DNA of 64,000 nucleotides from a virus. How positions within the stretch are numbered: the first letter of the stretch is position 1; each line of letters opens with the position of its first letter. The translations under genes and the position numbers were made by a program. The notes beneath the pieces were generated by a model. That model did no database searches, was not told the origin of the DNA, and saw only the letters and a list, made by a program, of their open reading frames with translations. This document shows positions 34,686 through 56,505 of the stretch, piece by piece. The stretch spans positions 1 to 64,000 of IMG/VR virus record IMGVR_UViG_3300026544_000001; one strand, given 5' to 3'.

Positions 34686-35108
34686 TTAATCCTTTACGTC
34701 TGGTAGTACTTCTGGTTTATTAGGTAATTTACCGTATTTGTAATAATGTTCTATTACATCCGTACCCATTAGTACTCTATAGTACTTAGTACCATCTTTA
34801 CCTGTATCACTTAAAACTAGTAGATACTTTTTATCTTTTAGTTCTTTACGTATACGTTTAACTTTAGCTACTGACCAATGTAGCTTTTTAGCTATGTACT
34901 CATTGTCATTAGGTTTAAAGTAATTAAATGTAGCTTTTCTATAATAAAAATGGTATAGTTTATATGCACTGTCTGTTAGTTCTGTATTTAGTTCATCTAG
35001 GTATTTATCTGTAAACATGTATACTCCTCGTTCGTATTTAGTATTTTCTGACAAAGGCTTATATACCTTTGTAGAAATATTAAGATAATTTTCGCTATAC
35101 TTATCCAT
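34686..35108 (-). CDS. Winged-HTH protein (cassette A); paralogue of 55067-55528
   Basis: LTDSAYKLY...IAKKLHWSVAKVKRIRKELKDKKYL, resembling replication-initiator N-terminal HTH domains. Confidence 0.7.
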   Translation of the reverse strand: MDKYSENYLNISTKVYKPLSENTKYERGVYMFTDKYLDELNTELTDSAYKLYHFYYRKATFNYFKPNDNEYIAKKLHWSVAKVKRIRKELKDKKYLLVLSDTGKDGTKYYRVLMGTDVIEHYYKYGKLPNKPEVLPDVKD

Positions 35109-35140
35109 AAGCAATCCTTGTAATTTATTGTGGTGATAAA

Positions 35141-35391
35141 ATTATAGCTCATATTTGCTTAAACTAACTTAATAAAAGCTCAGATTTGAGCTTTATCTTA
35201 CTAGAATAGATCAAATATATACCTGATATTAAATAGAATCCCAATGTTTAAAGCATTTATACTTAATTTAGTATAGTACTACTTACATATATAATATATT
35301 AGTGAACTGGTATAACTTTGTGATCAAAAATCTGTCAAAGGAATAACAATAATATGTGTGTGTTTAGTTATACCAGCTCGCTAATATATTA
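35141..35391 (-). promoter_or_regulatory. Cassette A control region: promoter, 31-bp-spaced sites, 26-bp inverted repeat
   Basis: TTAAG-N11-TATAAT (35141-35162); AGCTCA-like sites at 35146, 35177, 35208; palindrome 35175-35194; IR 35292-35317/35366-35391 (24 of 26). Confidence 0.65.
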
Positions 35392-35700
35392 CTGTATTAG
35401 ATCTTTATAGTAGATACATTTACTATGTTTAGAGGATGCTATATGACATGTAAGTAGTTTAGAAGGTTCAGGATCATCTAGATGAGTGAAAATAAATAGA
35501 GGAGTACCTTTAGATATTTTAAGGAACCTGTTATCTTTTGACCATCTATATAAGTCCTCTAGTATATTAGTTATAGAACCCTTTAGGCATGGATCCCAGT
35601 AAAAACCAAGATTACGTAATTTAGCTATAAGACTATTAGCTTCATCTATAGATTCACATAAGATAGCATCATGTGATTTAAGTAGAAATGGGTTTAGCAT
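35389..35700 (-). CDS. Hypothetical protein
   Basis: 103-aa ORF. Confidence 0.55.
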   Translation of the reverse strand: MLNPFLLKSHDAILCESIDEANSLIAKLRNLGFYWDPCLKGSITNILEDLYRWSKDNRFLKISKGTPLFIFTHLDDPEPSKLLTCHIASSKHSKCIYYKDLIQ

Positions 35701-35703
35701 AGT

Positions 35704-36792
35704 TTACTCCAAGGGTTCTCCAGTATTGTCACATTTACGTAAAGATATAAAAATTGGCTTTGTAGGAATTCCTCCATCTGAAAGCATTTCATACTCTATT
35801 GTACCATAGTTGTTACGGTATAGTTTGTCGAAGTCTTTTACTATCTGTTTACGTTCTACGTCAGTACCTTTAGGTTTAGTTTTGAATTGTTTATCGTTAT
35901 ATTCTACTATAAATACTGGATGATCATTCTTATCTAAGTTATAATCTAGTATCTTTACTTCTGTAGATTGTACTGGTTTAAGTTTCCACATTTGATTAGA
36001 TCTAACACCGTGCCTATATTCTGCTTCTGGGTGTTTAATAACTATACCTTCATAATCATCACGTATAGTACTATAGTAAAATTCTGCTAATTCTGTTTCA
36101 TTGTTTACTATTTTAGTATATGCTGGAAGTATATGTGTATATGCAAATATAACATTATCTGTTAAATATTTCCATCTATTTTGGAAATTCATAATAGGCA
36201 AGTCCCCTATATCAAATAACATAAATCTAATAATGTTAGAAAATTCCTTTGGTTTTTTAACATAAGATACTATTTCTTGTAAAGAAAGACTATCAGCCCA
36301 TAGCTCACCTACTAATTCATTACATTGTAGTTTATCCATTAAATCTAACACTTCTTGTTTATTCTCAGGAAGTATAGGATATTCTTCACCTGTCCTAGAT
36401 AGTAGTTGTAGAGTGTTGTTTGTTCTCTTATATGTAGCATTAAGTCCATTGTATTTAATCTGTACGTATAGAGGATAATCTGGCATTTTCTTAGGAGGCC
36501 ATTTGCTTATCTTCATAGCTTGATGTCTAGTAGAAGTTGTATCCTGTGATGTAGTATATCCTAGTTTGATCTTCTTAGCATGTAGTGCCTTAGCTTCTAG
36601 TAAGGCTTGTTCTTCATCTGTAGTAGCATTAGATCTACCTATATTCTTTGGTAAGGCTGTTGTAGTTTTAGATTGCTCTTTACCGTCTACATACCCCCAA
36701 GTTACTGTATATGTATTTGAAGTAACTTGTATATCAAATAATTGTAGTTTACCTGCTTTAGATCGTTTGTATAGTGTAGGTAGATTTAACAT
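35704..36792 (-). CDS. ATP-dependent DNA ligase
   Basis: QIKYNG (motif I variant), LLSRTG, GEL, FD, EGIVIK, WKLKP, PTKPIF. Confidence 0.88.
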   Translation of the reverse strand: MLNLPTLYKRSKAGKLQLFDIQVTSNTYTVTWGYVDGKEQSKTTTALPKNIGRSNATTDEEQALLEAKALHAKKIKLGYTTSQDTTSTRHQAMKISKWPPKKMPDYPLYVQIKYNGLNATYKRTNNTLQLLSRTGEEYPILPENKQEVLDLMDKLQCNELVGELWADSLSLQEIVSYVKKPKEFSNIIRFMLFDIGDLPIMNFQNRWKYLTDNVIFAYTHILPAYTKIVNNETELAEFYYSTIRDDYEGIVIKHPEAEYRHGVRSNQMWKLKPVQSTEVKILDYNLDKNDHPVFIVEYNDKQFKTKPKGTDVERKQIVKDFDKLYRNNYGTIEYEMLSDGGIPTKPIFISLRKCDNTGEPLE

Positions 36793-38845
36793 TTAAGTTC
36801 CTCTAGTAGTTTAGCATTGAATTTGATTGCTTTATGTATATCATGTATCCGTATATCATCTCTGATTGGATGAGATACTTCATACAACTCCTCTATAAGA
36901 ATAGATGCTTTACCTATTTTATATTGTAAAGCTATAGAATAAGGTAAATCACTAAACTCAGTAGGAGATACTCCATATAGGTATTGTGTAGTTTTCATAT
37001 AGGTCCTTTAGAATGTATGATTAGCTAAGTACATAATAGTTACTACAGCTGCGAAGTATGCTAGTAGATCAGCTTCGTTGAATTGTATCATTATATAGTT
37101 CCTTAGTTGCTTGTAATATGTATGTTTGTTCTTGTATAAGTTCTTCAGTTACAGGGTCATTTTCTGATTCCCGGTCATTTGGTTTGTTTCTGTAGTAGTT
37201 GTATAGCTGAGTAAGAACTGTATATTTACCTGTATTAGGTAAAGATAAATCTAGTGACTTAATAGCTATAGGCAGTCTAACTCTATCATCAAGTGTTACA
37301 TGATATTTATGTGCTATAGATAATACATATATATTTAGATTTGGAAATGGTTTATCTTGAGCTATTTCAGCAAATAGTTTAACAGTTTCTAAGTTTGTAT
37401 AACTTATATAGATATTATAGAATTCAAATAGGTTAACTATTGTACTATAATCTACTATATGTTTTTTAAGGTAATCTACTATTCTATTTGAAATACTATT
37501 AAGATCTTTTTCATAGAATAGAGGATAATTATCTGTTTTAGTTTGTATTAATTTAAAAGCTTTAGTAGCTACTCTGAAATGATAGATTGTTCCTTGTTTA
37601 AGTTCTTTAGATATACGTTGTCTACTAATATAATCTAGTGAAGATCTAATAGTAGCATGTAAATACTTTAGTGTAAGTTTAGGTTTATTTAGTTCATTCA
37701 TTATTAATGTATGTTCTAGTTCATTCATTAGTTAGCTCCTAGTTGTAATTTAGCTTCAAATATATGCTTATGTAGTTCTTCCATTCTATCTGGTATATTG
37801 AATTGAATGTAATTTGGATGTAAAGCTAGAATAGATACAAAATCATGTGCTTCTGTTATAAGTTGTTCTAGTTCTCTTCTACGATTTTGTTTATGCTTAT
37901 ATGCTCGTTTATACTTTCCTTGTGCAGTTATTATGTTAGTTACAAAATAATCATAAGCAATTCTAGGTCTAGTGAATAAGGGAAAGACTCTATATTTATC
38001 AGGAATAAGATCTATAAGTTTTCTTATTTGTCTTGATGTTGTATTAGAATACTTATGTGAAGTAATAAACATAAAGTTATTATCTCTATCTATTTGTGCT
38101 ATACGTGTTGAGTATGAATATAGAGAGTCATTTTTATATTTCATTCTATTACAATATGTTCTACCTTCTGTGTTAGCCTTAACTAACCATGATTCGATAA
38201 GAGATATATAGTCAGAAGATTTGAATTTATACATTGTTGTTCCTTAAGTTAATTTCTTTTCTGAATAAATTGAATTTGAATCTATCTTCATCCACTATAA
38301 GGGCTTCGAATACTTGATAGGTATGGTTGTCTACTAACACATGAATAGTTGACATCAGTTCTATTAACTGTAGTTCTTTACCTGATATCGCTTTTGCAGT
38401 ATTTTTAGGTACTATTATATCTTCTACTATTATATAAGTAAACTTATTATCTAACTGTGATTTACTATATTCAGATATTTGTTTAAAACGTACTGTCATT
38501 AATTTACTTTAATTTGATATTATATATAGCTGAATTAGCAAATACATATAATTTATGTTGTTCATTAGTTTTTAGTATGAAATTAAATTCAAGATCACTT
38601 AATTCGTTGCCTAGTAGTTTTTCAAATAATAGTTTTGCATCACAGGTTGTAAAATAGTTATAAGGTCTGGTCTTAGTTTGTTCCGTATAAATATCATGAT
38701 ATTTATCAAAATATACATTTGCTCGTGTATGAATTCGCCCATCCAATAATGTGATAGATAGTAATCTACTTTCATGATTTATACTAATATGAGCAGCATC
38801 GAATCTAGGTTCAAATTGATTTTTAAATATTTCTGAAAATAGCAT
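36786..38845 (-). other. Five hypothetical ORFs (36786-36998, 37069-37728, 37728-38234, 38227-38499, 38504-38845)
   Basis: Co-oriented ORFs with RBSs or overlaps. Confidence 0.55.
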
Positions 38846-38878
38846 TAGTTCTCCTTAATAAGTAAGGAAGAACCTTAC

Positions 38879-40276
38879 TTATGGTAATTTAATATTTAGG
38901 CCATGGCAGATGTTGGTGTCTACTTCTGGGCAGTTCTGTGGAGATAGAAAGAACCAAGTGAATTTCTTCATACTTGGATAAGCTTTCCATGCTTCATTAC
39001 CATCATCATAATTGTCACTCATTTTTATACAAATATATTTAGATTTATCTTTAATACTTAGTTCATCTATATATTTTATAGTAGACATAATAGATGTACC
39101 ACCATTTGCATACCTTTTAGATAGAGCTTCTTTAAACTTAGGTGATTGTGATATATCAAAATCACTTGTAATCTTTGTAGTATAAACTAGATCAACATCA
39201 TAGATACATACTATAAGTTCGTTTATCTTATGGCTTTGCGATTCAAATATACCTAATAGTTTTTGTAGGTCATTGATTTGTATTGAGCCACTTTGATCAA
39301 TAGTTAGGATAATGTTTACTTTGTTATCTGCATATACATCTGCTGGGGCTTTGAATATATGTCTATATGTTCGTTTAAGATTCTTCCAGCTTCTGTCATG
39401 TTTGTTTGTTTTGTTATAGATAGTATTGGTGATAGTACCTTTAAGTTTATCAAACCATGCTGCATCTGTTTTGATTGATTCAAATGACTCTATCATAATA
39501 TCTGCACCATATGTACCTTTAGAGTTAGTTCTAATAACGTTAATGATAGCATTAGCTAGATTCTGTGTTTGTATATCTTGAGCTATGTTACCTGATATTA
39601 GATTCTTTGGTGTGATATATTTAAAGCCATTTATCTCTGATACTATGTATCTATCACTGTTAGTAACAGGAAGACATTTATGAGATTGCTTCTTAAGATG
39701 CTTAACTATTTCTATTTCAGATAGTTCTTTGTAATCTTCGTTAAAAGCTATATGTTCTCTGATAGTAGACCATTCTGATCTAAGGCTACTTTGTGTAAAT
39801 AAACTATCCATGATATTGTTTACTTTATAGTCACAAGCTAGTTTGATAGTAAAGTGAGGGTCAGTACGTTGTTTATACTTCTTAAGTAGCATAGATTGAA
39901 ATGGTGCTGTATAATGCTTACGTAAAATATGTTGTACTTCTTTCATATAGTGATATGCAAAGAATATAGATTGTTTCTTAGCTATCTTAGCTATATACTT
40001 AAGTTGTTTAGCATCTCTGTAAAAGAAAGTAAAGTGTACTTGTTGTTCTATTGGATCTGTATAACAAGAGAATACTTCCATTAGATCTGGTAATTGCAGC
40101 TTCTTAGATTCTGCATCATTTGGGTACTTATGTACTTCTACTGTAATAGGTAGTTTAAGAAACATACCTAATGCTGTGAATGCTACTTTATCTGAACCTA
40201 TGATTTGGTTGTTAAGATATGCTAATTCTTGTATTATATGATTTGCTGTTTGTTCAATAAAAATTGATTCTGTCAT
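38879..40276 (-). CDS. DUF2201-like N-terminal domain plus VWA domain protein
   Basis: MIDAS DQSGS, GGT, MSD; KEVQH at the HExxH position; near a MoxR AAA gene, as N4 gp24/gp25. Confidence 0.8.
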   Translation of the reverse strand: MTESIFIEQTANHIIQELAYLNNQIIGSDKVAFTALGMFLKLPITVEVHKYPNDAESKKLQLPDLMEVFSCYTDPIEQQVHFTFFYRDAKQLKYIAKIAKKQSIFFAYHYMKEVQHILRKHYTAPFQSMLLKKYKQRTDPHFTIKLACDYKVNNIMDSLFTQSSLRSEWSTIREHIAFNEDYKELSEIEIVKHLKKQSHKCLPVTNSDRYIVSEINGFKYITPKNLISGNIAQDIQTQNLANAIINVIRTNSKGTYGADIMIESFESIKTDAAWFDKLKGTITNTIYNKTNKHDRSWKNLKRTYRHIFKAPADVYADNKVNIILTIDQSGSIQINDLQKLLGIFESQSHKINELIVCIYDVDLVYTTKITSDFDISQSPKFKEALSKRYANGGTSIMSTIKYIDELSIKDKSKYICIKMSDNYDDGNEAWKAYPSMKKFTWFFLSPQNCPEVDTNICHGLNIKLP

Positions 40277-40767
40277 GTTGTTTCCTTTGTTTCATTTGAT
40301 TCATTATACCATAATACATCTTCAGGGTCTATATCGGCCTTGTTTAATATGGTTAGGAGATCTTCTGGTATATCGTCTACTGTTTTATAGTCTTCAAATA
40401 TATATGTAAATTCATCTATACCGTAATAGTTAATAGATGCAACTGAAAAGTATTTAGTATAATAGTCACATATACTTTCGTTATTATTTTCTTCGTACTC
40501 ATAGAAGAAGTCATTACCCGGTTCAGATTCAGCTATATGTATGTATACTGGGTTAAACTCATGTAGATCAGATAGAAGATTTGATTTATCTGCTTCCCAT
40601 CTACCTTCTCCTCCTATAGTCATAGTGGTACCTTGTATACCTAAATAGTGTGTTTGTATATTATACTCATAACATTCATCTTTAGTAAAATGGTGTTCTC
40701 TATAATGTTTAAGTTCGAATATATTATCAAACGTAATAGTTATATCTATTTGTGTCCAATTAGCGAT
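40273..40767 (-). CDS. Hypothetical acidic protein with probable ATC start (M-A-N-W)
   Basis: Frame open 48 codons upstream of the called ATG; AAGGA RBS 6 nt before ATC GCT AAT TGG. Confidence 0.6.
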   Translation of the reverse strand: MANWTQIDITITFDNIFELKHYREHHFTKDECYEYNIQTHYLGIQGTTMTIGGEGRWEADKSNLLSDLHEFNPVYIHIAESEPGNDFFYEYEENNNESICDYYTKYFSVASINYYGIDEFTYIFEDYKTVDDIPEDLLTILNKADIDPEDVLWYNESNETKETT

Positions 40768-40778
40768 GAGTTATCCTT

Positions 40779-40973
40779 TCATTTAATAGGTGTTGATTTA
40801 GTTGTACGTCTATTTACTATTGTTATAAAAGTTTTTAAATAGTTTACTCTAAACCACACTTTACAGCTATTACAGTAGGCATTCTTATCTAAAGTATTTC
40901 CACATAACGGGCATAATTTAGATTTAACTGCTTTAGCATCAAACATATTGAAAGATTCTGGTAGATTCTTCAT
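40779..40973 (-). CDS. Small Zn-ribbon protein
   Basis: CPLCG...CNSC. Confidence 0.55.
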   Translation of the reverse strand: MKNLPESFNMFDAKAVKSKLCPLCGNTLDKNAYCNSCKVWFRVNYLKTFITIVNRRTTKSTPIK

Positions 40974-42148
40974 TAGATAATATACTGATTCATAATAGTT
41001 AGTATAGCTGGTCTGTCTTCGAAGGTAGCTTCTTTAACTAGTTTAGTATCTTTCTTAGATAACTTATATTCAGCTATATTGTCTTTATCTAGTATCTTAT
41101 CTAGTAATATAGATTGAGCTATAGTGATAGGTTTCTTGTTAATATATTCATTTTGGTAGTATGCCCAGAATTTACCTGCACTGAATCCTATGAATGAATG
41201 ATTATCTTTGTTAAGATTCATTAGATCTATACAATATACTGCATCTTGTATAGTCTCTGCCCAATCAAGGATAAATGGATATACTATCTGATCTATTGCT
41301 GATAGCTTAGATATATCTAATGGTTTCTTGTCATCTAGTATTTTTCTGAAGTTAATCTTCTCTAAGTATGCAACATGCGATGCTAGTTCTGTAGCAGCTT
41401 CAGATGATACATATTGCTTAGCTATAGTTAGAATATTATCTTGTATGAACTGATCATCTAGATTATTAAGACAAGTAGATAAGAAATCCCAAGATCTAGG
41501 CGTACCATACGGTGTCTCTGTAGATTCTTGTTCTTGTAAGAAGTTCAGGTTAAGTTTCAAGAATGAAGATACATATCTATGTAACTGAATACCTACTGTT
41601 TCATACCATTGAGCTGGATTGAATTGTATCTTAAGTATTTGCATACGATTGATAATAGCTGAACCAAATCCATCAAACCCTGCTTCAGTAGAATCATTAG
41701 CTGTTGCTATGATAGCTACATTAGGTAGAAGTTTATATTGTTGCAGTTTACGGTTAAGTAATAGTTCATATAGAGCATCTTGTGCTGTCTTCTGCATAGC
41801 ATGTACATCATCTATAAGAATAATAGCTCCAGCTGGATTATCCATAGCCATTGAGTTAGCTTGATAGATAACTTCTGGTACAGACCATTGAGTGTATCTA
41901 TGTTCAGTAGATTTTGATAGTGCGTATTTATCTATTGCTTTGTCTTTAAGTTCACTGGGTAATCCCAACCACTGCTCTGTAGATATAGTGGCACCAGATA
42001 GATCAAGTAGACTCATACCTAGTTCTTTAGCAATAGAAGCTACTTTAGTTGATTTACCTGAACCTGGAGATCCCATAAGAACTATAGGTGCTATATATTG
42101 ACCTGTAGTTTGGGCTTTAATATTTGATTTGATTATAGTTGCTTCCAT
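40973..42148 (-). CDS. MoxR-type AAA+ ATPase
   Basis: GSPGSGKS, LIDD, ATAN, AIINR, TPRSW. Confidence 0.88.
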   Translation of the reverse strand: MEATIIKSNIKAQTTGQYIAPIVLMGSPGSGKSTKVASIAKELGMSLLDLSGATISTEQWLGLPSELKDKAIDKYALSKSTEHRYTQWSVPEVIYQANSMAMDNPAGAIILIDDVHAMQKTAQDALYELLLNRKLQQYKLLPNVAIIATANDSTEAGFDGFGSAIINRMQILKIQFNPAQWYETVGIQLHRYVSSFLKLNLNFLQEQESTETPYGTPRSWDFLSTCLNNLDDQFIQDNILTIAKQYVSSEAATELASHVAYLEKINFRKILDDKKPLDISKLSAIDQIVYPFILDWAETIQDAVYCIDLMNLNKDNHSFIGFSAGKFWAYYQNEYINKKPITIAQSILLDKILDKDNIAEYKLSKKDTKLVKEATFEDRPAILTIMNQYII

Positions 42149-42428
42149 TTTTTGATTCCTTATATTATTTAACTAGTTAATTTTTCACTTAATATTTCTT
42201 TTACTATACCTGTTAGTGATGTTGCTATTTGTTCTTCTACCTCTATTTTTATAATTTCTAACCTACTTTTCAATATACTATCTAATTCCAATTCTACAAT
42301 AGTATATACTTTATCTGCTAGACTATCAGACTCCCATATATCCAATCGTTCTATTTCATTATCTATATATTTTTCAAGTGATTGTTTTACTATATCGTTA
42401 GTTATATCTATAGTTATATTCATTTTAT

Positions 42429-42871
42429 TTACCTCTTTATGTTATTTTCTTTCCATTCTACCCATTTACCTTTAGCTTTTAAAGCTATACTGGCAGGTCC
42501 ATTAGTTGTATAGTATGGCTCTTTACAGTAATACCATATACAATTATCGTCTTTATTAAAATAAATATATTCATCATAATCCGGAAATCCCCAATTTATA
42601 TTACATAGTTTTAGATCAGGGTTTAATTCGAATAGAAATAGTAGTTTAGTTTTTATTCTTTCCATTCTAACCATTCTCCGGTATAATCTAAAGCTGTATA
42701 TGCTGGTTCATCTAATTTATCTATTTCATTGTGATTACAATAATAATGGATTTTGTTAGTTCTTTTATTAAAATATATGTATTCTATACACCCTACATCT
42801 TCCCAAGCTGTGTTATATAACTTAAGGTCAGGATTCATATTGAATAAGAATAATAGTTTATTTTTCATCAT
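42429..42871 (-). other. Two tandem paralogous small proteins (42429-42665, 42653-42871)
   Basis: Both share KLLFLF..NPDLKL.N..W...YIYFNK...YYC...PA..AL...G.W.EWKE. Confidence 0.75.
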
Positions 42872-43456
42872 AGTCCCAATTTAACCAAAATGCTTTAGAG
42901 TTAAAGTTGTGTGTTCTATTGTAAGTAGTACACATATCTACTTCATGTGATAATGCTCCTAGTACTAATAATATTCCTGCTATTATAATCAATGATATAG
43001 CTTTCATTACAGTTCCTTAATGAGTAAAGATGTATAGATTATTATTCCAGGATTGCCACTTGGTTGGCATACTGATACTGGTTGCTGAGTAATTACTTTT
43101 ACATTATGTGTAGTTCTAAGTTCATTTATCTTAGCTGCTGTTTTATCTAATGAGGTAGCAAAGTTAATATATTTGCCTTGTTGATATGGTTTAGTTATAC
43201 CTAGATTAGTCATTAGTTACTCCATTTTTTAACTTCTTTGATTCTATCTTCTAAAGCTTTGTATGTTTTCTTTAATAAAGTAGATGTCTTACCTATCGGG
43301 TACCTACCTTGATAGATGCGAACTATAGATTTCATATCATATAGTTTAGCTATAGGATATGTATTTAGGTTATCTAGTGTATTGTTACAACTAAATACTA
43401 CTTGTTCTTCTGTATGTTCTCTCATATTAGTTCCTTGTGTTAAATTTATTATTTAT

Positions 43457-43540: not shown

Positions 43541-43548
43541 ACTGTTTA

Positions 43549-44619: not shown

Positions 44620-44639
44620 TATTATTCCTTATATTAAGG

Positions 44640-46329: not shown

Positions 46330-47058
46330 TTATCCTTTGATAATACTAGGATGTTCTCCTACAAATGGTTCACAATAGATATATCTTGTGTTTTCATCAG
46401 TATAATAGCAATCGTATTCTGTGTGACTAAATTGTCTTAAATCAGGTTCTTTTCGTTTTTTACAGTCATAGAACCAACACCACTCACCTTTAGATGGCTC
46501 CCATGGTTTTAACTCATCTGCATGAAACACTTCATTAGCAAAGCCCTTTTCTCGTATTACATATGATTCATCCCATGTTTGACTTTTTTCATTTACTATG
46601 AGTATTCTATATGGATGTTTAGATTGTGAATATCTTACTAATTTATTTCTATCTACATCTGAAAATTCTGTCATTTTATCTACTAATGGAGTAACCCAGT
46701 CACCTACTTGGTACTGTGGCTCATCTGGTTTGATACGAAATTCTATATCAGAATATTGCAAGCTACTTCTAAATTCTTTTATAGTTGTATCTATCCATTC
46801 TGTTTTGTGATTACACTCTTCTACAGTATCCCCAAAGTGATTGTATGTTCTATATTGAATTTGTTTGCCCTCTATTTCTGCCTTCTTGTATTCAGCATAT
46901 TTATCGTTGATAACATATTCACATTCAATGTTCCAAGTTGGTTGAGCACTTAAATTCCATTTGTTTAAACTACCTTTACACCATATCTCAGCTCCTTCTG
47001 GTTTATCTTTCCACCATGCAAGCGCTTCCCAATGTTTATTTAATGCTTCTTTTGTCAT
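46330..47058 (-). CDS. Modular YRIKP-family hypothetical protein
   Basis: Start set at MTKEAL after AAGGAG; shares a 102-bp block and RIKPDEP.(F/Y).VGDWV with the 32028 gene. Confidence 0.65.
   Translation of the reverse strand: MTKEALNKHWEALAWWKDKPEGAEIWCKGSLNKWNLSAQPTWNIECEYVINDKYAEYKKAEIEGKQIQYRTYNHFGDTVEECNHKTEWIDTTIKEFRSSLQYSDIEFRIKPDEPQYQVGDWVTPLVDKMTEFSDVDRNKLVRYSQSKHPYRILIVNEKSQTWDESYVIREKGFANEVFHADELKPWEPSKGEWCWFYDCKKRKEPDLRQFSHTEYDCYYTDENTRYIYCEPFVGEHPSIIKG
46902..47003. repeat. 102-bp near-identical repeat, copy 2
   Basis: Matches 32468-32569 with one mismatch. Confidence 0.9.
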
Positions 47059-47083
47059 TTTAGTTCTCCTTAATTTAATATTC

Positions 47084-47122
47084 TTATATGAGTAGTGAAT
47101 GGAAGAAACACTACTCATATAA
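47084..47122. other. Perfect 14-bp hairpin
   Basis: TTATATGAGTAGTG-N11-CACTACTCATATAA. Confidence 0.6.
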
Positions 47123-47683
47123 AGATAAGTAGTCATACATTCCTATGTCCAGTGACAGTGAGGCAATTAAAGGTAGCTTACTCCTGTATTAATTGGTTAA
47201 CGTATGACTATATCTAGTTTCAAAATTTAGTTTATTACAATAGTTATGCCAATAATTATTGTATTAGTATGACCTACGTCAGGGACTTAGCTAACTGTAT
47301 ATGTTATATGTGCACTTGATTTATGCCATTGTATGTCTAGTATATCTACTACTGATTGTCCATCTCTAGTTACTACTTTAGCAAAATCTTTTAGTACTGC
47401 TTCAGGTTCTGATCCTTGTATTTTAATTACGTTAAAACGTAGATCACCTTTATATGTTATAGTTGTATGTTTCACTAGTTATCCTTATATTTAGTTAGTA
47501 CTTTATTAACTTCTATTGCAATTGTTGCTTCAATAAGTTCGTATAACTGTTTAGTTGTTATACTTTTATATTGATCATAGTTTATATTCATCGGTAAATG
47601 AGGATCTGACAGCTTGATATAACTAAAGTCTCCTGTATCACATACTATTGCTACTTCTGTTTCTTTATATTTAATCATAAATG

Positions 47684-48136: not shown

Positions 48137-48507
48137 TGTTTTATACCAGTGATTGTACAATCTTTAAAATTCCAGTAATGTAGGTTCAACTTTAAGTTAA
48201 TACTATTTATCTCTTTACCAATAAAACACCCGTTTTTATTATCATATATAATATACCAACTATTTAAATCTTTTAAAATATCTCCACCTTTTCCATCTTC
48301 ACTTAAACTAGCGAATATTTTATTATTGTTAGAATCTAGCATATTAGAAAAGTGGATTGATAGGGTTGATTGATCGATTTCAGTATTGAAAGGTTCATCA
48401 ACATCATAATTAACAATATTTCTTGTATAATCATCAGCGTAGCAATATCCTTCTACCCACTCATCACTGTTTAATTTTTTTGCTCGGTATATTGGTATTT
48501 GTGTCAT
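48133..48507 (-). CDS. YopX-like protein
   Basis: IYRAK....EWVEG...LDSNNNKIF...GDIL pattern. Confidence 0.7.
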   Translation of the reverse strand: MTQIPIYRAKKLNSDEWVEGYCYADDYTRNIVNYDVDEPFNTEIDQSTLSIHFSNMLDSNNNKIFASLSEDGKGGDILKDLNSWYIIYDNKNGCFIGKEINSINLKLNLHYWNFKDCTITGIKQ

Positions 48508-48509
48508 AA

Positions 48510-51133
48510 TTACTCCTTTATAGGTACTATTTGTATTATTCCTAATATTATAGCTAACACTCCTGTTGTAGTTGGGCCAAATGCTAAATAAGATCCTCCT
48601 AGTACAAGAGGTATAGCTAATATTACATTGTGATTATATATTGTTTTCATAGATATTTCCTTATTAATGTTTCTAGCTCTTGTGTAGATAATGTAGTATG
48701 AATACCAAAGCAATTACCTTCAGCTAGATTGAGAAGGTATATTAGATATGCTCTATACATAGTTTATCCTTATAAGGAAGCTAATAGTTCTTCTTTAGAG
48801 AAGAATACTTTATTATTATTACTTCTAGTGAATTGTCCATCACATAGATCATTGAAATATAGTGTTATACCTGCATCTTTAATTATACTTACTTCAACTA
48901 GTTCTGCTTCAGTTACTTTATTATTGTGCATGAAATACATAGTTTGACCTAATGTATATTCTATTGGGCTATATGTATCTTGTGTGATTGTTATTGTCAT
49001 AATTTATCCTTAATTATTTCTTCTAGTATTAATATGTTATTAGAAGGTACTGTTATGTTATAGGTTATATCTTTATAGGTTAATACAAGATTACTATCTT
49101 TATTAAAATCTATTTTAGAATTTGTAAACTTTAGTTTATTCTTAAAGAAGTATCCATGATCTTTATAAGTATTAGAATATATCTCAACTAGCTGATTATG
49201 TCTATCTTCATTTGATATAATTTCTAATTTATTCATAACTGCTCCTTAGTTTAATGTTGCTACTACTTTGCAGTGTTCGTCTCTAGTTATTACACTATTG
49301 CCTATGAGTGTGTAGTATAGTATAGAATAGTTAGTAACTGTCCCTTGTCTATGTACTGTTATATATTTCTTACTTTGTTTAATAGTCATGACTATAGTCC
49401 ATACTCTACTAGAGTAAGAAGTATATTTAGATCTAAATCTATAATTGGTGTGTAATCTAATATCATTTGTTATCCTTTACTAATGAATTAAAGTGATAGT
49501 GTCCATCTAGTTTAGTTACTTTAGGATGTTCACTTTTAAGAAGTTGTTTAAGCTGTTTATTATATGTACCATTGATCTTTGTAACTACATTTAAATTAAT
49601 ATCTGATAATAGATCTTCTGTTATTTTGCCATTCTTTTCTAGTAAAGATAATGAGTCCATATCAAATATTGCGTATCTTGTTACTTTGTTATCTGTAGGA
49701 GCTAGATGTTTATATACATCTATAGTATTTGTTCTAGGAGCATACCTAACATCATACAATGTATTAGCTAAATTGTTTATATCTTCTTTAAGTTGTTGTT
49801 CTGCTTTTTTATACTGTTTGTATTGTTCTCTTAATGTTTGTTTCATTTATTATCCTTTATTTATTGTTATGCCCATATCTCTGTTATTCTACCTAATGAA
49901 GGAGTAGGTATACTTAGTTTATTGTATAGATCAGTAATAAGACTAGATTTGATATGTGTGTCTTTTCTTAGAGCTGAGTTATTAGCTTTAAGTAAATCTA
50001 TTTGTGTATCTTTCTCTTTGCACTGATCCAGAAGATCCTCTACTAGTTCATTTCTATGATCTAGTTGATTACGTAGCAGTGCAATAAGATCGTCTTGGTC
50101 TTGTAGTTCTTTGTTAATAGCTGCTGCATGTTCCGCTGGTAGTGTATAAGTGTTGGTTAATTTATTAAATTTCATAATGTCTCCTTTAGTTAGATGTATA
50201 TACTGTTATAAGTTTAACGTAGAAAAAATCGTTAATACTCGTTAAAAAATCTTCTGCATGTTCTATAGATTCAAATTTATACGCTTCGCTAGTACATTCT
50301 ACATATGTTATTTCATCTGATTCTATATCTATATATCGTTCAGAACCTATGCTCTGTAAAACAAATTCTTTTTTCATAGTGTCTCCTTTATATTAAGTGA
50401 TTGTATTGCTAAGTGTAATGTTGGATAGCGTGTAGGTTCTGTAGTTTGATTAAGTTGTAGTTGTGGTCTAGTGTTAAATCTAACTACACAAAATGTGTTA
50501 GTGATTGTATCAAGTCCTATGAACTGATGGTTGTGAGTTACATAAATCTGATAGTTATATGATCTAGCTAATTCATTTAGATTATCGTACTGATGAAATG
50601 CTAACATTTTGTCTCCTTTTAGTGTATAATAGAACTTTTAGTTACTTGTTCCTTTATACCACTATCTGTTAGATGATATGCTTGTAGGCAGTAATCATTA
50701 AAAGATTCTGGTGTATAATTTTCATCTACTACAGCAGCAACTCTTAGATAATCTATATATAGTTTAAGTAACTTATCTCTGTTATTTTCTATGAATTCCT
50801 CTTGGGTATATATTCTTGTCATTACTTCCTCCTGTTATATTTTCTTTTAGCTGGATTGGCATGTTCTATGAATACTAGATCAGATACATCTCGTAAAGTA
50901 TATTGATGTGTATCTTCTAGAGGTTTATAGTACTTTTTTAGTTTAGCTGTGAATTTACATCTACGTTTGTTATTACGATAGATTCCTCTTAATGCTTTCT
51001 GTAGATTGGGTGTTAGTTCAACCCAGCAATGGTCTCTATCTAGGTCTAGTGCTTTAACATGTGTTAATAGTACTAGAGTAGTAGTTGGGTTAATATAACG
51101 TAAGTTTGGTGTTAAATATGCTTTAACTTCCAT
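48510..51133 (-). other. Dense cluster of small early hypothetical ORFs
   Basis: About 10 co-oriented ORFs of 60-130 aa, mostly with AAGGA RBSs. Confidence 0.55.
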
Positions 51134-51163
51134 ATGAAGATCTCCTTGATTAAAAATTGATTA

Positions 51164-51193
51164 AAAAATAAGAATACTAATTAAAGTATTCTT
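51164..51193 (-). terminator. Intrinsic terminator
   Basis: AAGAATACT-TTAATT-AGTATTCTT followed by ATTTTT. Confidence 0.6.
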
Positions 51194-51197
51194 GAGT

Positions 51198-51656
51198 TTA
51201 CACTAATGGTAAATATGTAGTTTTTCTATCATATCCATAGTGATTATGTTGTCGTTGGTGACATCCATTTATTCCACCACATAGTATACGAACATCTCGT
51301 ATATCTTCTTGTCCAAGTCTGACGTAACTTATATGATGTAAATTTAGATTATTAGTTGATCCACATATCTCACATTTATTGTTTACTATAAGCATTCTGT
51401 CTTTCTTTAATTGTTTCCAGTAATTAGATTGCATATGCTTTAGTTTAGCTTCTCTAGATATAAACATAGAAGCATGATATTCTTCATTATCTGTTCTAGC
51501 AGTATTAAGCCAATTACTTTTACTTGGATTCTTAGCTGAAAAAATAAATAATAGCGGTATGAATATTATAAAACCTATAAAAAAAGAATCTGTTAAAGAT
51601 CCTATTGTACATGCTATTATAAGTGGTACTATTTCATTAAATTGTTCTGTTGTCAT
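51198..51656 (-). CDS. HNH endonuclease with hydrophobic N-terminal segment
   Basis: CEICG..NLNLHHISY...LC...CHQRQH; the first 40 aa are transmembrane-like. Confidence 0.75.
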   Translation of the reverse strand: MTTEQFNEIVPLIIACTIGSLTDSFFIGFIIFIPLLFIFSAKNPSKSNWLNTARTDNEEYHASMFISREAKLKHMQSNYWKQLKKDRMLIVNNKCEICGSTNNLNLHHISYVRLGQEDIRDVRILCGGINGCHQRQHNHYGYDRKTTYLPLV

Positions 51657-51671
51657 TACATCTCCTAGAGC

Positions 51672-51700
51672 AAAAAAAGAAATAGACTAATTAAAGTCTA
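51672..51700 (-). terminator. Intrinsic terminator
   Basis: TAGACT-TTAATT-AGTCTA followed by TTTCTTTTTTT. Confidence 0.55.
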
Positions 51701-52026
51701 AATCCTGTACATCCTAATATTTTTCCATGTTCATCTTTCTGAACTTGTCCTGGTGCTACTACATCTGTTCTATCCTTATCCTTACAATTAAGAGCTAAGG
51801 CACTAATAATGTAAATAGTATTAGGCTTAGGCTCTGGCAGATAGTCAATATCTCCACTTATTGTTTTATATATAGGTAAATTAGATTGTTTACTTACTCG
51901 TTTTCTATTAGTTGTACATCTTACAACTATACCTGATTTAGGTATAGTTATTCCTGTTGATACTTCTGTTATATCGTGCTTAGTTAGATTTATATAGTTA
52001 ATTCCATTGTGTGTTGTTTGTTTCAT
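51691..52026 (-). CDS. Phage hypothetical protein
   Basis: INLTKHDI...LPEPKPNTIYIIS...RTDVVAPG...G.ILGC pattern, recalled from other phage proteins. Confidence 0.6.
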   Translation of the reverse strand: MKQTTHNGINYINLTKHDITEVSTGITIPKSGIVVRCTTNRKRVSKQSNLPIYKTISGDIDYLPEPKPNTIYIISALALNCKDKDRTDVVAPGQVQKDEHGKILGCTGFRL

Positions 52027-52035
52027 ATTTGCTCC

Positions 52036-53814
52036 TTATTTCATTGCTGATTGTTCTATTACTGTATCATTAGCTACTTTATCTACAGATAATAGTATCT
52101 TACCAAATGCAATAGCTGCTTTAGTTGATGTAATATTCAATGTTTGTTGATATTGTTTTATTATAGTTTGTCTATTATCAAATAGATCTTGCAATTGTTT
52201 AGTATACTCTACTCTAGCTGTTGATCCTGGTAAGCATAGTATAGCATCATGTATACCTATTGCCCATTCATTAGTATTCATTAATTTAACTAATGTATTG
52301 TTAAGTAATTGACTATCTAGATTATGTACTAAACAAGTTGTATAGTATAATGAGAATCGTTTATAATCAGGTAATCTCATAGGTTTGTGTATCATAGTAG
52401 TCCTAAACTTGTTAATAGATGGATCCCAATATGTGTATACATTTAGTTTACTATCAATAGTCTTAAACTTATTCACTTCTATAGTAAACTCATCATTCCA
52501 TATATTAGCTTTATAGTTTGGTGTAGTTATATTACCAAACATAGTCCAATAGTCTTTAGATTGTCGTACTATACTAAAAGCACCTGATTTAAACTCTTGT
52601 TTTATTGCATTCATTTGCTCTTTAGATAGTTCAATATTCTTTTTAGCTAATAATTGCTTAAATGACTGATTAGAGCCATACGAAATAGGTGTACCAATAG
52701 CTTTAACACCTACTCTAGGTACATCTGCTACATCCCAAAAGTCTTTTAAACTATCTTTATTGATAAGATTAGTTTTATCCATAAGTCTACTATCTCCAAA
52801 TAGTAATCCTGTGATACCAGCTACTGAAGCTGTCATGTCTATCTCAATAGGTATATCCCATTTAACTATATCATTAGTAAATAGGGTATCTAATCTACTA
52901 TAGATTCGCTCTAACCATATATGTTCATGATCTATATGTTTAGGCAGTTCTCGTCTAAGGTATGCTGCTTTACCTGCTAATGCTTTAGTAGCCCATCTAT
53001 TAGATTTAATACCTAATAATTCAGCTATAAATCTATATATATCCTTAAGTTTACTATAGTCCTTAGTAGTAATCATAGTATACTTATTAGATATAAGTAA
53101 AGCTCTTGCATTCTTATCAGCTATAGGATTAAATACTCTTTTAAGTCCGGTATAGATAGATCTACCTCTACTATCACTAATGTTAGCTTCCATATTATAA
53201 CGAGCTTTAGGATTAGCTGTATAGTAAGCAAATAACCATTTAGATATTTCTCCATAGTTAAGTATATCATCTTCAACAAATGAAAATCGTTCCTTCATTT
53301 TAGTTATAGATTTAACTAGTTGTTCAGTGATATAGTCTTCGTACTTAATCATCATAGGTATGTCAAAGCTAAATTGTTGTTTAGCAGCATACTCAAATCC
53401 AGTACGAACTAATCCAATATCCTTAACACCAGATGGTGTACTAGTCAATAAACTAGATGACTCTTCAGTGTTACATTTAAGTGAGTATTGTCTAATCTTA
53501 ATAGATTTTCTATAGTTATCTCGTTCACTCGTAGTAGTATACTTAGCTATAGCTAATGTTGATAACTTAATAGATGCAAATTTAGCTGATCCATTAATAC
53601 TAAGCCAATTAGAATCTTTCTGAGTAAGAGCATAAGTAATCTTATTCATAAGTTCTTGACCTATCTTATCAATCCAATAAGGTATAGATAATGAGTTATT
53701 AAATACCCATGCTCGTTCAAGAGCTAAGATAAATTGTTTAGTTGGTTCCGAAGTTAGTTCAATATAATTTCGTACATTAGTTGTTGTATGTTGTGTTAAT
53801 AGGTTTAGTACCAT
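52036..53814 (-). CDS. T7-family single-subunit RNA polymerase (middle RNAP), compact 592 aa
   Basis: DSRGRSIY, EIDMTAS (motif A), RVGVKAIGTPISYGS (motif B), VHNLDS, IHDA (motif C). Confidence 0.9.
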   Translation of the reverse strand: MVLNLLTQHTTTNVRNYIELTSEPTKQFILALERAWVFNNSLSIPYWIDKIGQELMNKITYALTQKDSNWLSINGSAKFASIKLSTLAIAKYTTTSERDNYRKSIKIRQYSLKCNTEESSSLLTSTPSGVKDIGLVRTGFEYAAKQQFSFDIPMMIKYEDYITEQLVKSITKMKERFSFVEDDILNYGEISKWLFAYYTANPKARYNMEANISDSRGRSIYTGLKRVFNPIADKNARALLISNKYTMITTKDYSKLKDIYRFIAELLGIKSNRWATKALAGKAAYLRRELPKHIDHEHIWLERIYSRLDTLFTNDIVKWDIPIEIDMTASVAGITGLLFGDSRLMDKTNLINKDSLKDFWDVADVPRVGVKAIGTPISYGSNQSFKQLLAKKNIELSKEQMNAIKQEFKSGAFSIVRQSKDYWTMFGNITTPNYKANIWNDEFTIEVNKFKTIDSKLNVYTYWDPSINKFRTTMIHKPMRLPDYKRFSLYYTTCLVHNLDSQLLNNTLVKLMNTNEWAIGIHDAILCLPGSTARVEYTKQLQDLFDNRQTIIKQYQQTLNITSTKAAIAFGKILLSVDKVANDTVIEQSAMK

Positions 53815-53835
53815 TTTATTTTCTCCTTATTAGTT

Positions 53836-53872
53836 AAAATAGTAACCCCATGAATAGTAGATGGGATTACTA
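53836..53872 (-). terminator. Intrinsic terminator between the 201-aa gene and the RNAP gene
   Basis: TAGTAATCCCAT-N9-ATGGGGTTACTA followed by TTTT. Confidence 0.65.
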
Positions 53873-53887
53873 AGTAATTGGTTAGTA

Positions 53888-54493
53888 TTATGCTGATTGT
53901 AATGCTTCACTAGCAGCTTTAGCTAGTTTAATTTCATCAAGTTCACGTTGTATCTTAGTCATAGCAATAGATTCATTCTTAGAGTAAACTTCTTCAGTCA
54001 TTTTGAAATCAACAGCAGATAGATTAGCAGCTTCAGCAAACTCAACATATGCATCATATAGTGCAACATAGTTAGGTTCTTCACCAGATACTACATTATA
54101 CTCATCATCCATAAAGCTATTGAAGCCTTTGTACTCTTTAATATCAAGCATCATATCATGAGTAATATTCCAACCTTTAGATTGTAATGTCTCTATGATT
54201 TCATCTTGTAAGTCAAGTTCCAACTGAGCATCCCATGGCTTATCAATGATAGGTGATGCATATAGAGCTACAAGCTTATTGATAGCAGCAGGTACTTTAC
54301 CATATGAGTCTTTTCTTATACCTCTTCTGAAGAATTGTTGTAAGAATTTATCATCTTTACCTAATTTAGTTGATAGTGATAAAACTATTGGTTTAAGTAC
54401 ATCTACTGATTGAGCTACTAGTCTATTGTTGATTGTTATATCACTGATTGTTCTTGTTGTTCCATCTAGTTTTGTTATTGTATTAATTTCCAT
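53888..54493 (-). CDS. Early acidic protein, possible RNAP cofactor
   Basis: 201-aa ORF directly upstream of RNAP; function inferred from position only. Confidence 0.5.
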   Translation of the reverse strand: MEINTITKLDGTTRTISDITINNRLVAQSVDVLKPIVLSLSTKLGKDDKFLQQFFRRGIRKDSYGKVPAAINKLVALYASPIIDKPWDAQLELDLQDEIIETLQSKGWNITHDMMLDIKEYKGFNSFMDDEYNVVSGEEPNYVALYDAYVEFAEAANLSAVDFKMTEEVYSKNESIAMTKIQRELDEIKLAKAASEALQSA

Positions 54494-54550
54494 TATTATT
54501 CCTTTATATGGTTATTAGTGGTTGCTTACTTGAAGCTACAGTTTATGTTC

Positions 54551-54565
54551 CGTTACATTAAATTT
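54551..54565 (-). promoter_or_regulatory. Candidate phage early promoter motif (variant AAATTTAATGTAACG)
   Basis: One of four co-oriented copies. Confidence 0.45.
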
Positions 54566-54686
54566 ATATATTGTAAATACTAGTAATGCTATAATAGTAC
54601 CTACTACTAAGATACTGAATACAGCATAGAGTAGAGATAGTATTAATGATATGACTAGGATGAGAGATGCTAAAAGTTGTAGTTGT

Positions 54687-54941
54687 TTAATCATCTATTA
54701 TCTCCTTGAAGGTTGCTTCTATACCAGATAAATCAGGTGGATATAGGTATAGGTAGAATGATATTGTGAATGATGCTACCATTGCGATAGACATACCTGT
54801 CTTAGTTCCTCCGAACATAAGGTTAAGTGCTAAGATCATTAAAAGATCTAATATAGCGTCTAGTTTATGGTTATGGTTGAACTTCCATCGTATTACGATT
54901 AGATTGAATGCTGATAGTACTCCTACTATTAGTACTTCCAT
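54687..54941 (-). CDS. Small multi-pass membrane protein
   Basis: Three hydrophobic segments in 84 aa; followed by a 52-aa hydrophobic ORF (54536-54694). Confidence 0.6.
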   Translation of the reverse strand: MEVLIVGVLSAFNLIVIRWKFNHNHKLDAILDLLMILALNLMFGGTKTGMSIAMVASFTISFYLYLYPPDLSGIEATFKEIIDD

Positions 54942-54960
54942 GTTTACTCCTTGTGTAGGT

Positions 54961-54975
54961 CACTACATTGAATTT
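54961..54975 (-). promoter_or_regulatory. Candidate phage early promoter motif (AAATTCAATGTAGTG)
   Basis: Immediately upstream of the RBS of the 54941 gene. Confidence 0.55.
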
Positions 54976-55066
54976 GTTTGTAGTGTGATTCAATTAATAT
55001 TATAGATGTTCTAAGATTACGTATTGTGCTATTATTGATCTTTTCGATTAGAATGTAGTGTAATAG

Positions 55067-55528
55067 TCATATTTCATTTTTAGTTGATATTTGTACATCA
55101 TAATTTGAATCTATTATAGTTTCTGCTATAACTAAATCATGATCTAATAATTTACTACCTTCTTGAAATTCAGTAACATCTTTTTTACCTAATATCCATG
55201 TAGATCTAACTATACCTTTATGAGTTTCTTGCTCAAAATGTATCCAACCTGTGTTAGATAGTTTTAATCTATAATGTTTAACTTTTCTAGATGTCCATCC
55301 TATAGATCTTCCTACTAATATATCGTCTAATAGATTAAAATGTGTTACATAAGCTTTACTTACATAATAGTTATATAGATATAGTGCCTCTGCATTTATA
55401 TCTGAAACTAACTCTCTTTGTAAAGCTAAACTAAGAGTGTAGGTACTTTTTGAATGATGTTTCTTACTCATAATGCATGTTCCTCGGTAGATAAATTTTT
55501 GTTTAAGCTTACTTTTGCTATACTTCAT
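55067..55528 (-). CDS. Winged-HTH protein (cassette B)
   Basis: INAEALYLYNYY..KA...VGRSIGWTSRKVKHYRLKLSNTGWI aligns with the 34686-35108 protein. Confidence 0.7.
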   Translation of the reverse strand: MKYSKSKLKQKFIYRGTCIMSKKHHSKSTYTLSLALQRELVSDINAEALYLYNYYVSKAYVTHFNLLDDILVGRSIGWTSRKVKHYRLKLSNTGWIHFEQETHKGIVRSTWILGKKDVTEFQEGSKLLDHDLVIAETIIDSNYDVQISTKNEI

Positions 55529-55612
55529 TTAACAATCCTTAATGGAAGAGTTAAAATTATTAACCACATCTAAAAGTTAATCTCTTCCTTCTAACCAAAA
55601 GTTTACCAAATG

Positions 55613-55793
55613 TTGTCTGATATATACCTTAACTGGACAAGATCTTGTCCAATGACCCTATAACTGGACAATATTGTGTTAGTACTGAATTTAACTATAA
55701 TACCGATGTATACTAGCTTATAATCAATTTAATGGTAAATTAGAATCACTACCTTATATTATATATTATATATTATATATGTAGATTCTAATT
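55613..55793. promoter_or_regulatory. Cassette B control region
   Basis: TAACTGGACAA at 55630 and 55661; palindrome TGGACAAGATCTTGTCCA; AATTAGAATC/GATTCTAATT IR around a TATATAT-repeat tract. Confidence 0.6.
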
Positions 55794-55806
55794 GATAGAG
55801 TGCATA

Positions 55807-55835
55807 AGTAAAAGATATACTCTCTTTAGGATACT
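55807..55835. repeat. 29-bp direct repeat, copy 1
   Basis: AGTAAAAGATATACTCTCTTTAGGATACT, identical at 56450-56478. Confidence 0.9.
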
Positions 55836-55844
55836 AAATAATTA

Positions 55845-56270
55845 CTATAGCCTATTATCCCATTTTAGTTTATACTTATCATAATTAGATGGTAATAATA
55901 GATCAGGATTTATCATATAATTGTATCTATCTATTTTACCTATTATGTTCTTTTTACGTAAGCTACTTACTGCTGTAGATATCTTTTTCTTCTGTGACTC
56001 TGTACAAGCTATTAAACTACGTTGAAATTGTACTATAGGTACATACTCTTTCTCTATTGGACAATAGTTTATCTTGTTCTTAATATACTTAATAACTTCT
56101 TGCTCTGACTTTGTTAATTTCATTACTATGTCTACTAAATCCATTTGTATTGCTCCTCTATCTACACCTAATCGTATAAAAGGTATATGTGCTTTAACAC
56201 TATCCTCTTCAACTATGGTTACTTTTTTACCTTTTTTTAAGGTAACACTTACTATACTGTTATCATCCAT
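55845..56270 (-). CDS. RepL-like winged-HTH protein (cassette C)
   Basis: LTKSEQEVI...ISTAVSSLRKKNII...YMINPDLL, as in plasmid RepL-type proteins. Confidence 0.6.
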   Translation of the reverse strand: MDDNSIVSVTLKKGKKVTIVEEDSVKAHIPFIRLGVDRGAIQMDLVDIVMKLTKSEQEVIKYIKNKINYCPIEKEYVPIVQFQRSLIACTESQKKKISTAVSSLRKKNIIGKIDRYNYMINPDLLLPSNYDKYKLKWDNRL

Positions 56271-56305
56271 TTAGCAACTCCTTGCTTAATTATTTCTTCG
56301 ACATT

Positions 56306-56440
56306 ATTATAGTAGGTGTTAGCTTAATAGTCCCTTTAAATAGGGATTTTACTAGTTATAAAGTCCCTTTAACTAGGGACTCAAAATAAGTACTAATACG
56401 ATGGTTAAGCTATAGTTACATTCTAAGAGTATATAGCTAA
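56306..56440 (-). promoter_or_regulatory. Cassette C control region
   Basis: TTAAG-N11-TATAAT (56306-56327); palindromes AGTCCCT-N6-AGGGA(T/C)T at 56329 and 56362. Confidence 0.65.
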
Positions 56441-56449
56441 CTAGGTAAT

Positions 56450-56478
56450 AGTAAAAGATATACTCTCTTTAGGATACT
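56450..56478. repeat. 29-bp direct repeat, copy 2
   Basis: Identical to 55807-55835. Confidence 0.9.
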
Positions 56479-56505
56479 CTCATAGAAAAAGATAGTAACA
56501 ACCTA

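Follow-up and report, generated by a model that had tools for sequence, protein, structure and literature searches.

The N-terminal domain of the lambda initiator O binds repeated sites of inverted symmetry beside an AT-rich tract; four such sites are located inside the O gene, and the C-terminal domain of the protein recruits the helicase loader. DnaD, Gram-positive DnaB and phage replisome organizers (HTH_36, DnaD_N, Phage_rep_org_N; PDB 8ojj, 2v79, 5wtn) carry a winged helix at the N-terminus, and RepL (PF05732) is a plasmid replication protein of Firmicutes. Here, we describe three cassettes (A, B and C) in the first 64,000 nucleotides (nt; hereafter the window) of virus record IMGVR_UViG_3300026544_000001, each composed of a short winged-helix gene and a pair of palindromic sites upstream of it. 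We propose, with moderate confidence, that in a distant N4-like phage these cassettes serve as portable DNA-binding modules, each under its own negative control. Modules of this general kind, in which a small DNA-binding protein regulates itself through paired operators, are well known: excerpts of two papers describe two sites in the protein's own promoter region for small (winged) helix-turn-helix proteins from mobile elements, and examples are Aca proteins at anti-CRISPR promoters, Stf76 of pSSVx and MarR at marO (PMC9410906, PMC4027180). The cassettes differ from these in protein family and in that the regulator is the first gene and, in B and C, the sole gene; no cargo gene is evident except for a nuclease gene after A. 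What is new is a stand-alone initiator-type domain with private sites at 30–31 bp steps, common to N4-like phages and exchangeable as a cassette.

An earlier note on this DNA had described three winged helix-turn-helix genes, each with its own palindromes repeated at 31, 31 and 33 bp. Both claims hold: the genes code for 140, 153 and 141 amino acids (aa), all on the minus strand, and a palindromic site is present in duplicate in front of every gene, 40–110 nt upstream of the start codon (Table 1). Each palindrome is confined to its own cassette across all 124,676 nt of the record, and the three share no sequence. The small protein-plus-site modules of the note are supported; they are compact, and their sites are private. 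In A, the distal site is the only full palindrome of the pair (AAAGCTCA-N4-TGAGCTTT, with 8-nt arms, 35175–35194), and the proximal copy is a half-site, TGAGCT, that adjoins a TATAAT box. In B, TGGACAAGATCTTGTCCA is a perfect 18-bp palindrome (55634–55651) and the distal copy is degenerate. Cassette C has AGTCCCT-N6-AGGGACT and a copy with one mismatch (56329–56348 and 56362–56381), and its proximal site is ~20 nt upstream of a TATAAT box. When the whole genome was scanned for short-range repeats (18-mers at least 15/18 alike, 25–40 bp apart), 16 clusters were found, as compared with 0–2 in five random genomes. Four of the 16 were intergenic, and A, B and C accounted for three of these four; the remaining one, at genome position 78458 (beyond the window), consists of GTATATGCATACATATGT and a 15/18 copy 27 bp away. 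In a strict test that asked for a perfect palindrome together with a second near-perfect one, C alone stood out. Predicted RNA folds were uneven within each pair: -9.2 kcal/mol for the distal and -3.9 for the proximal site of A, -10.0 versus -0.2 in B, and -11.8 versus -6.3 in C. Since a single copy of each pair folds well, it is the sequence that is repeated and not the structure.

Other upstream elements named in the note fared differently. The similar leader of the three genes, AAGGA(G)TTGYT, has four matches in the genome, three of which are at A, B and C (plain AAGGA is found upstream of 70 of the 168 open reading frames, ORFs). On the other hand, a motif said to be common to the three upstream regions did not stand: its pattern has 2 matches versus 0.70 expected, a number equaled by 15 of 100 shuffles, and when upstream regions are compared without gaps, the most similar 24-mers agree at 18/24 positions for A and B (reached by 7 of 40 shuffles), 16 for A and C (39 of 40) and 16 for B and C (35 of 40). 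We also considered this motif as a phage promoter and rejected it, as it has no other copies and the next-best matches have five mismatches and are inside genes. The note further claimed an AT-rich inverted repeat in each cassette. Inverted repeats do occur, with arms of 26, 10 and 18 nt in A, B and C, but they are mutually unlike, and an AT-rich tract is clear in B only. The long inverted repeat upstream of A spans the stop of the upstream gene 35389–35700 (RNA fold -36 kcal/mol, z -8.43); this very stable hairpin might serve in termination or processing, or form a cruciform.

By BLASTP, A and B are distant paralogues, as the note had stated (24% identity over 96 aa, E 1e-7), and both match phrog_21584 significantly over most of the profile length of 162 positions (A: E 5.1e-8, positions 25–96; B: E 9.5e-17, residues 19–115 on positions 13–111). 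The profile search also returned the DnaD-like loader family phrog_186 (E 3.9e-8) and the O-like initiator family phrog_678 (E 6.2e-6), and A matched Pfam HTH_36 with E 4e-5 and 23.8 bits, under the cut-off of 25. In its structural model (pLDDT 82.8), A adopts a winged-helix fold that carries a beta extension at the N-terminus, and the best VIA matches of this model were the N-terminal domains (NTDs) of Gram-positive DnaB (Z 7.8) and DnaD (Z 7.6), both over 91–94 residues and including this extension, followed by a third with Z 6.5 (84–94 residues for the three). The tool itself warns that Z below 8 may reflect a common fold arrangement; however, the profile matches to phrog_186 and phrog_678 agree with this result, as do the ESM Atlas neighbors, entered for B, which were HTH_36, DnaD_N and Phage_rep_org_N. 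MarR-type folds were among the Foldseek matches. Both proteins have the DnaD-type winged helix at the N-terminus, and the YSEN.L motif located there (YSE..L) is kept in both the A and B subfamilies; the upstream ATG (long start) is therefore favored as the true start.

Neither protein has a helicase-loading C-terminal domain of the DnaB_2/DDBH2 or O type, and no second Pfam domain was detected. Matches to PHROG initiators are limited to the first third of the profile (positions 29–103 of 308), and A and B end shortly past the wing. They thus appear to be DNA-binding domains without the helicase-loading part: where DnaD and DnaB continue into a C-terminal DnaB_2/helicase-loader domain, the cassette proteins stand alone with 140–153 aa. 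The likeness to the lambda O origin lies in a similar N-terminal domain, as seen in the phrog_678 match, and in repeated sites of inverted symmetry by an AT-rich tract; the cassettes differ in having two sites, upstream of the gene, and no domain that recruits a helicase loader. We also considered N4 gp1 as a relative of A and B, but found no likeness (hhalign probability 0.1%), and no phased palindromes were found at the N4 left end. The note had pictured these modules as spreading without a nuclease, which overlooks the gene directly after A: it matches phrog_93 (E 2.5e-22) and, under the respective cut-offs, Pfam VRR_NUC (4.2e-4) and Hjc (5.5e-4). A PADLOC search for defense-system families gave no matches among seven proteins.

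Gene C is weakly RepL-like. The protein itself scores 15.2 bits against RepL, below the gathering cut-off of 20.3, and is shorter than the 164-position profile. Its relatives number 52 at E of 1e-3 or less among 1.84 billion representatives (C itself included), and 45 of them were aligned, with 4 short and 3 long rows left out; 13 of these 45 match RepL at E of 0.01 or less (best E 4.6e-7). Comparison with the PDB showed nothing more specific than a generic winged helix for the model of C (pLDDT 87.0); in a viral fold library, this model matches crAss-like and other phage proteins labeled RepL or replication protein (E 1e-4 to 1e-2). A search of PDB sequences with the C profile gave nothing below E 0.08. 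No profile likeness of C to A or B was observed (hhalign probability 1%). Tblastn of C in the phage collection gave no match, and the lone match in a genome-collection scan was false, being inside a TonB-type receptor gene. Overall, the Rep-like nature suggested by the note is supported: the proteins descend from initiator-type winged-helix domains, DnaD-NTD-like for A and B and RepL-like for C.

In the phage collection, A and B matched N4-like Vibrio cholerae phages only (tblastn E 4e-8 to 5e-4), whose proteins define phrog_21584 (E 1e-96 and 3e-85). These vibriophage genes (VCO139_0081 and those of JA-1, JSF3, 12VC501 and phi 1; Pacinivirus) are true relatives of A and B, also with palindromes phased at 30–31 bp. 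They differ in having three sites per set and a second, conserved set, in their location inside a terminal repeat and in a protein length of 165–177 aa, and they are annotated as hypothetical. Upstream of the VCO139 gene, there are three copies of AGACC-N6-GGTCT at exact 31-bp steps and, further out, another palindrome, TTACACG...CGTAA, which likewise occurs three times with a spacing of 31 bp. The 12VC501 protein is 77% identical to that of VCO139, and the outer set is kept in this phage; the inner set is AGACA-N6-TGTCT, with steps of 31 and 30 bp and one copy flipped, and three positions of the predicted recognition helix differ between the two proteins. The TTACACG...CGTAA triplet with its 31-bp steps is conserved in three Vibrio cholerae N4-like phages (174–251 in L003 and L006, 825–905 in L007), where it is part of the terminal repeat and equally far from the genome end. 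According to excerpts of the paper on VCO139 and JA-1, the final ~1,974 bp of both records are a direct terminal repeat (PMC3670811), and the gene and its arrays are therefore inside this repeat, 170–550 nt from the genome end. In the same excerpts, predicted promoters and terminators are mentioned only in a figure legend (PMC3670811), and full-text literature searches returned no paper on the phrog_21584 vibriophage genes, the cassette genes or the phased palindromes.

Closer relatives came from metagenomes. Homologues of A are present on five short contigs (53–73% identity) and one homologue of B was found (49%); scans of IMG/VR with A, B, C or their alignments gave no relatives and one 21-residue match (L004), and a DNA search of the phage collection gave no match for the A region or the B/C region. 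A 2,648-nt contig, L005, codes for a protein 73% identical to A. Hardly any change is seen there in the two arms of the distal palindrome, in TGAGCT as the proximal half-site or in the TATAAT box and the 20 nt after it (TATAAT..ACAATAAAT); the 4-nt spacer is altered, and the flanks and the sequence further upstream diverge. DNA likeness between the two is limited to 35238–34759 and ends at the cassette edge, with the long inverted repeat outside it. Site sequence changes together with the protein, which the note had proposed to look for, although the comparators are few: A, B and C have three different palindromes, AGACC in VCO139 is AGACA in 12VC501, and the sites are identical at 73% protein identity.

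The patchy presence that the note proposed to look for in relatives was also observed. In L005, the A homologue is among different neighbors: downstream of it come a small ORF, an HU-like gene and the ribonucleotide reductase large subunit, which are 18 kb away in the window. For B and C, parts of 54900–57400 are present in three sequencing runs (contigs matched at 80% likeness), one of which may be the source of this DNA; no RNA run was listed as containing the locus. In a run of a different study, one 1,558-nt contig matches 54660–54977, 55852–55991 and 56103–56925; it joins 54977 to 55852 via 248 other letters, such that the whole of cassette B and the 29-bp sequence at its head are replaced, and it also skips 111 nt within gene C. 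A second contig joins 51263 to 55847 via 1,479 other letters, and other contigs among the matches listed carry B with ~3–4% differences. Because B is replaced in one related metagenome contig, it is accessory among near relatives; such variation is common in the early regions of phages and is no evidence of selfish spread.

Table 1. Location of the cassette genes, their sites and associated features in the 64,000-nt window
Feature	Position	Strand	Description
Gene A	34686–35108	-	140 aa (translation); winged helix of DnaD-NTD/HTH_36 type, phrog_21584
VRR-NUC/Hjc-like nuclease gene	34393–34683	-	begins 2 nt past the stop of A; ribosome site within the last codons of A
A site pair	35140–35194	-	18-nt copies at 35140 and 35171, 83% alike, 31 bp apart
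A long inverted repeat	35292–35391		26-nt arms, 92% complementary, 48-nt loop
Gene B	55067–55528	-	153 aa; paralogue of A, phrog_21584
B site pair	55630–55679	-	19-nt copies at 55630 and 55661, 84% alike, 31 bp apart
B AT-rich tract	55738–55793		10-nt inverted repeat flanking TATATAATA-type repeats
Exact 29-bp repeat, copy 1	55807–55835	-	head of cassette B
Gene C	55845–56270	-	141 aa; winged helix, separate family from A and B
C site pair	56320–56381	-	27-nt copies at 56320 and 56353, 81% alike, 33 bp apart
Exact 29-bp repeat, copy 2	56450–56478	-	head of cassette C; a terminator-like hairpin (56517–56495) immediately precedes it

The window is the opening part of a 124,676-nt record with a completeness rating of 94%. 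The final ~125 bases of the record are a copy of its opening bases, and therefore the assembly closes on itself. Its genes are organized in two arms, divergent near 57 kb and convergent near 10.55 kb: the minus arm runs from 56856 to 10560, and the plus arm from 57317 past the record end to 10546. PHROG matches to ribonucleotide reductase, helicase, primase, DNA polymerase and ligase are on the minus arm, and one to terminase is on the plus arm. The terminase is ~33% identical to those of N4-like phages (480 matched records, all below 60%), and a 592-aa early protein has matches solely in 100-kb Alteromonas podoviruses. Therefore, the source of the window is, judging from sequence, a distant, large and uncultured N4-like phage. 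Cassettes B and C are at the head of the minus (early) arm, and cassette A is in the replication/repair region.

We suggest that each of the small winged-helix proteins has a palindromic operator of its own and would bind both copies of it, probably in dimeric form; these copies would be located between the promoter and the start codon of the respective gene. The operator copies are three helical turns apart, and steps of 30–33 bp would place successive dimers on one face of the DNA; arms of 5–8 bp with spacers of 4–6 nt suit dimers of winged-helix proteins. The proximal site would overlap the promoter and the distal site would aid cooperative binding, such that the protein would check its own expression and, in the case of A, might gate the coupled nuclease gene as well. 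A and B would then be DnaD-NTD-type domains that lost, or never had, the helicase-loading part, C would be a RepL-type domain, and the modules would be accessory and swappable between related phages. Several observations are in agreement with this proposal: the private site pairs, which in the whole genome occur only upstream of their respective genes, the arms, half-site and TATAAT box conserved in L005, the shift of the vibriophage arms from AGACC to AGACA along with the change in the recognition helix, winged-helix models of good confidence, and the TATAAT boxes that adjoin the proximal sites of A and C.

Other observations weigh against this proposal. B is without a clear -10 box, and promoter-like matches were not enriched over shuffles (20 found versus 21.4 expected, and 18 versus 19.6). 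In VCO139 and 12VC501, the arrays are, in our reading of the sequence, upstream of, and separate from, a TTGAC-type -35 box, and phi 1, whose protein is 39% identical, has the outer set only and lacks the variable inner set. The genome holds no further copy of any site and hence no regulon that would account for the proteins; therefore, self-control is not their whole function. In addition, the distal palindrome of A is followed by TTTTATT and resembles an intrinsic terminator, and the same stem and T-run closes a helicase gene in an unrelated phage (L010), so this site may double as a terminator. It is possible, though we consider it quite unlikely, that initiator DNA-binding domains without loader parts are portable modules of N4-like phages whose private sites each mark one address in the genome. 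Such an address could act as an additional or rival start of replication, or it could determine incompatibility or exclusion among relatives that co-infect a cell, and this would explain both the changed specificity in close relatives, observed for one pair of vibriophages, and the coming and going of cassettes.

Three further explanations should be considered. The note had seen replicon architecture in the cassettes, and an initiator-derived winged helix that binds phased sites by an AT-rich tract could indeed mark a replication start or serve a genome-end function. The proteins themselves invite this idea, since A and B resemble, in both profile and fold, the N-terminal domain with which DnaD-like and lambda-O-like initiators bind the origin, and C and its relatives touch RepL. 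AT-rich and inverted repeats are beside the sites, B and C adjoin the divergent switch region at ~57 kb, and the VCO139/JA-1 homologue with six phased palindromes is close to the genome end in the terminal repeat (PMC3670811). Nevertheless, an iteron replicon has at least three direct repeats by an AT-rich tract, and the window cassettes have two sites each (the vibriophage relatives have three), which are palindromes and not direct iterons. The proteins are short and have no helicase-loading domain, B is dispensable in a relative, GC skew shifts only slightly at 34 and 56 kb, and three origins with three unrelated specificities would be unusual in one lytic phage. We therefore regard an origin function as rather unlikely, and the note's replicon claim as weak. 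Of the two alternatives offered in the note, orthogonal autoregulated switches fit better than selfish mini-origins. That the cassettes are selfish elements spreading between co-infecting phages by biased inheritance is, in our view, hardly probable at all: nothing shows such spread. One related contig is without cassette B and others have it, the DNA shared by A and L005 ends at the cassette edge, and exact 29-bp repeats bracket C, as might be expected of such elements, but no recombinase or homing nuclease was found within the cassettes, patchy small genes are the norm in phage early regions and the comparators are few.

The palindromes could also act by structure, either as terminators or attenuators or as hairpin promoters for an injected virion RNA polymerase. 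One site per cassette does fold at -9 to -12 kcal/mol (z about -3.3), T-runs follow the distal site of A and all the vibriophage sites, and the stem and T-run at the end of the L010 gene match. However, the second site of each pair retains the sequence and not the fold, and no T-run is present at the B sites. The loops of the cassette palindromes, 4–6 nt in length, also differ from the 3-nt loop of N4 promoter hairpins. The vibriophage arms have merely 5 bp with 6-nt spacers, one 12VC501 copy is flipped, and no compensatory changes were seen in the vibriophage and L005 comparisons. As described in excerpts of a review on N4, its early promoters are hairpins that have one conserved sequence in common, with inverted repeats centered near -11 (PMC4496689); the three cassette palindromes have no such shared sequence, each being private to its gene. 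We consider it very unlikely that structure is what these sites provide.

The exact 29-bp direct repeat that brackets cassette C, which the note had passed over, has two copies only in the 124,676 nt. It could be part of a promoter, or a recombination site that allows loss or gain of C. Contigs from the run that is the likely source of this DNA break exactly at this repeat, and past it there is TTTACT, 16 nt and then TATACT or TAGAAT. A different element, AAATTYAATGTAGTGR, occurs three times on the minus strand with at most one mismatch (57008–56993, 56868–56853 and 54975–54960). All three copies are intergenic, on the coding strand and at the head of the early arm, with a small hairpin after each, and AAATTYAATGTAGTGR is a candidate early promoter of this phage; weaker copies are at 54565–54550 and 55761–55746. 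Between two copies of this motif, there is a 23-codon ORF (56939–56868, minus strand) with a strong ribosome site, AAGGAG. Elsewhere in the window, the N4-type virion RNA polymerase is split into adjacent ORFs, 155–6616 (2,153 aa) and 6626–10546 (1,306 aa), which cover positions 141–1925 and 2280–3063 of the phrog_2206 profile. A 187-nt direct repeat of 81% identity (32418–32604 and 46852–47038) is inside the minus-strand genes 32028–32576 and 46330–47136, which are paralogues.

N4-like phages are a model for phage transcription, and most of their small early genes are unexplained. The present analysis connects the uncharacterized phrog_21584 with a well-defined putative target on the DNA, namely palindromes at steps of 30–31 bp, and this link spans a phage from a vent metagenome and cultured vibriophages. 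Should the cassettes serve as marks of origins or genome ends, they would be relevant to the start of replication in N4-like phages, for which our literature searches found no described origin. If, as we favor, they code for orthogonal self-regulating binders, they would provide three or more ready-made protein–operator pairs that do not cross-react.

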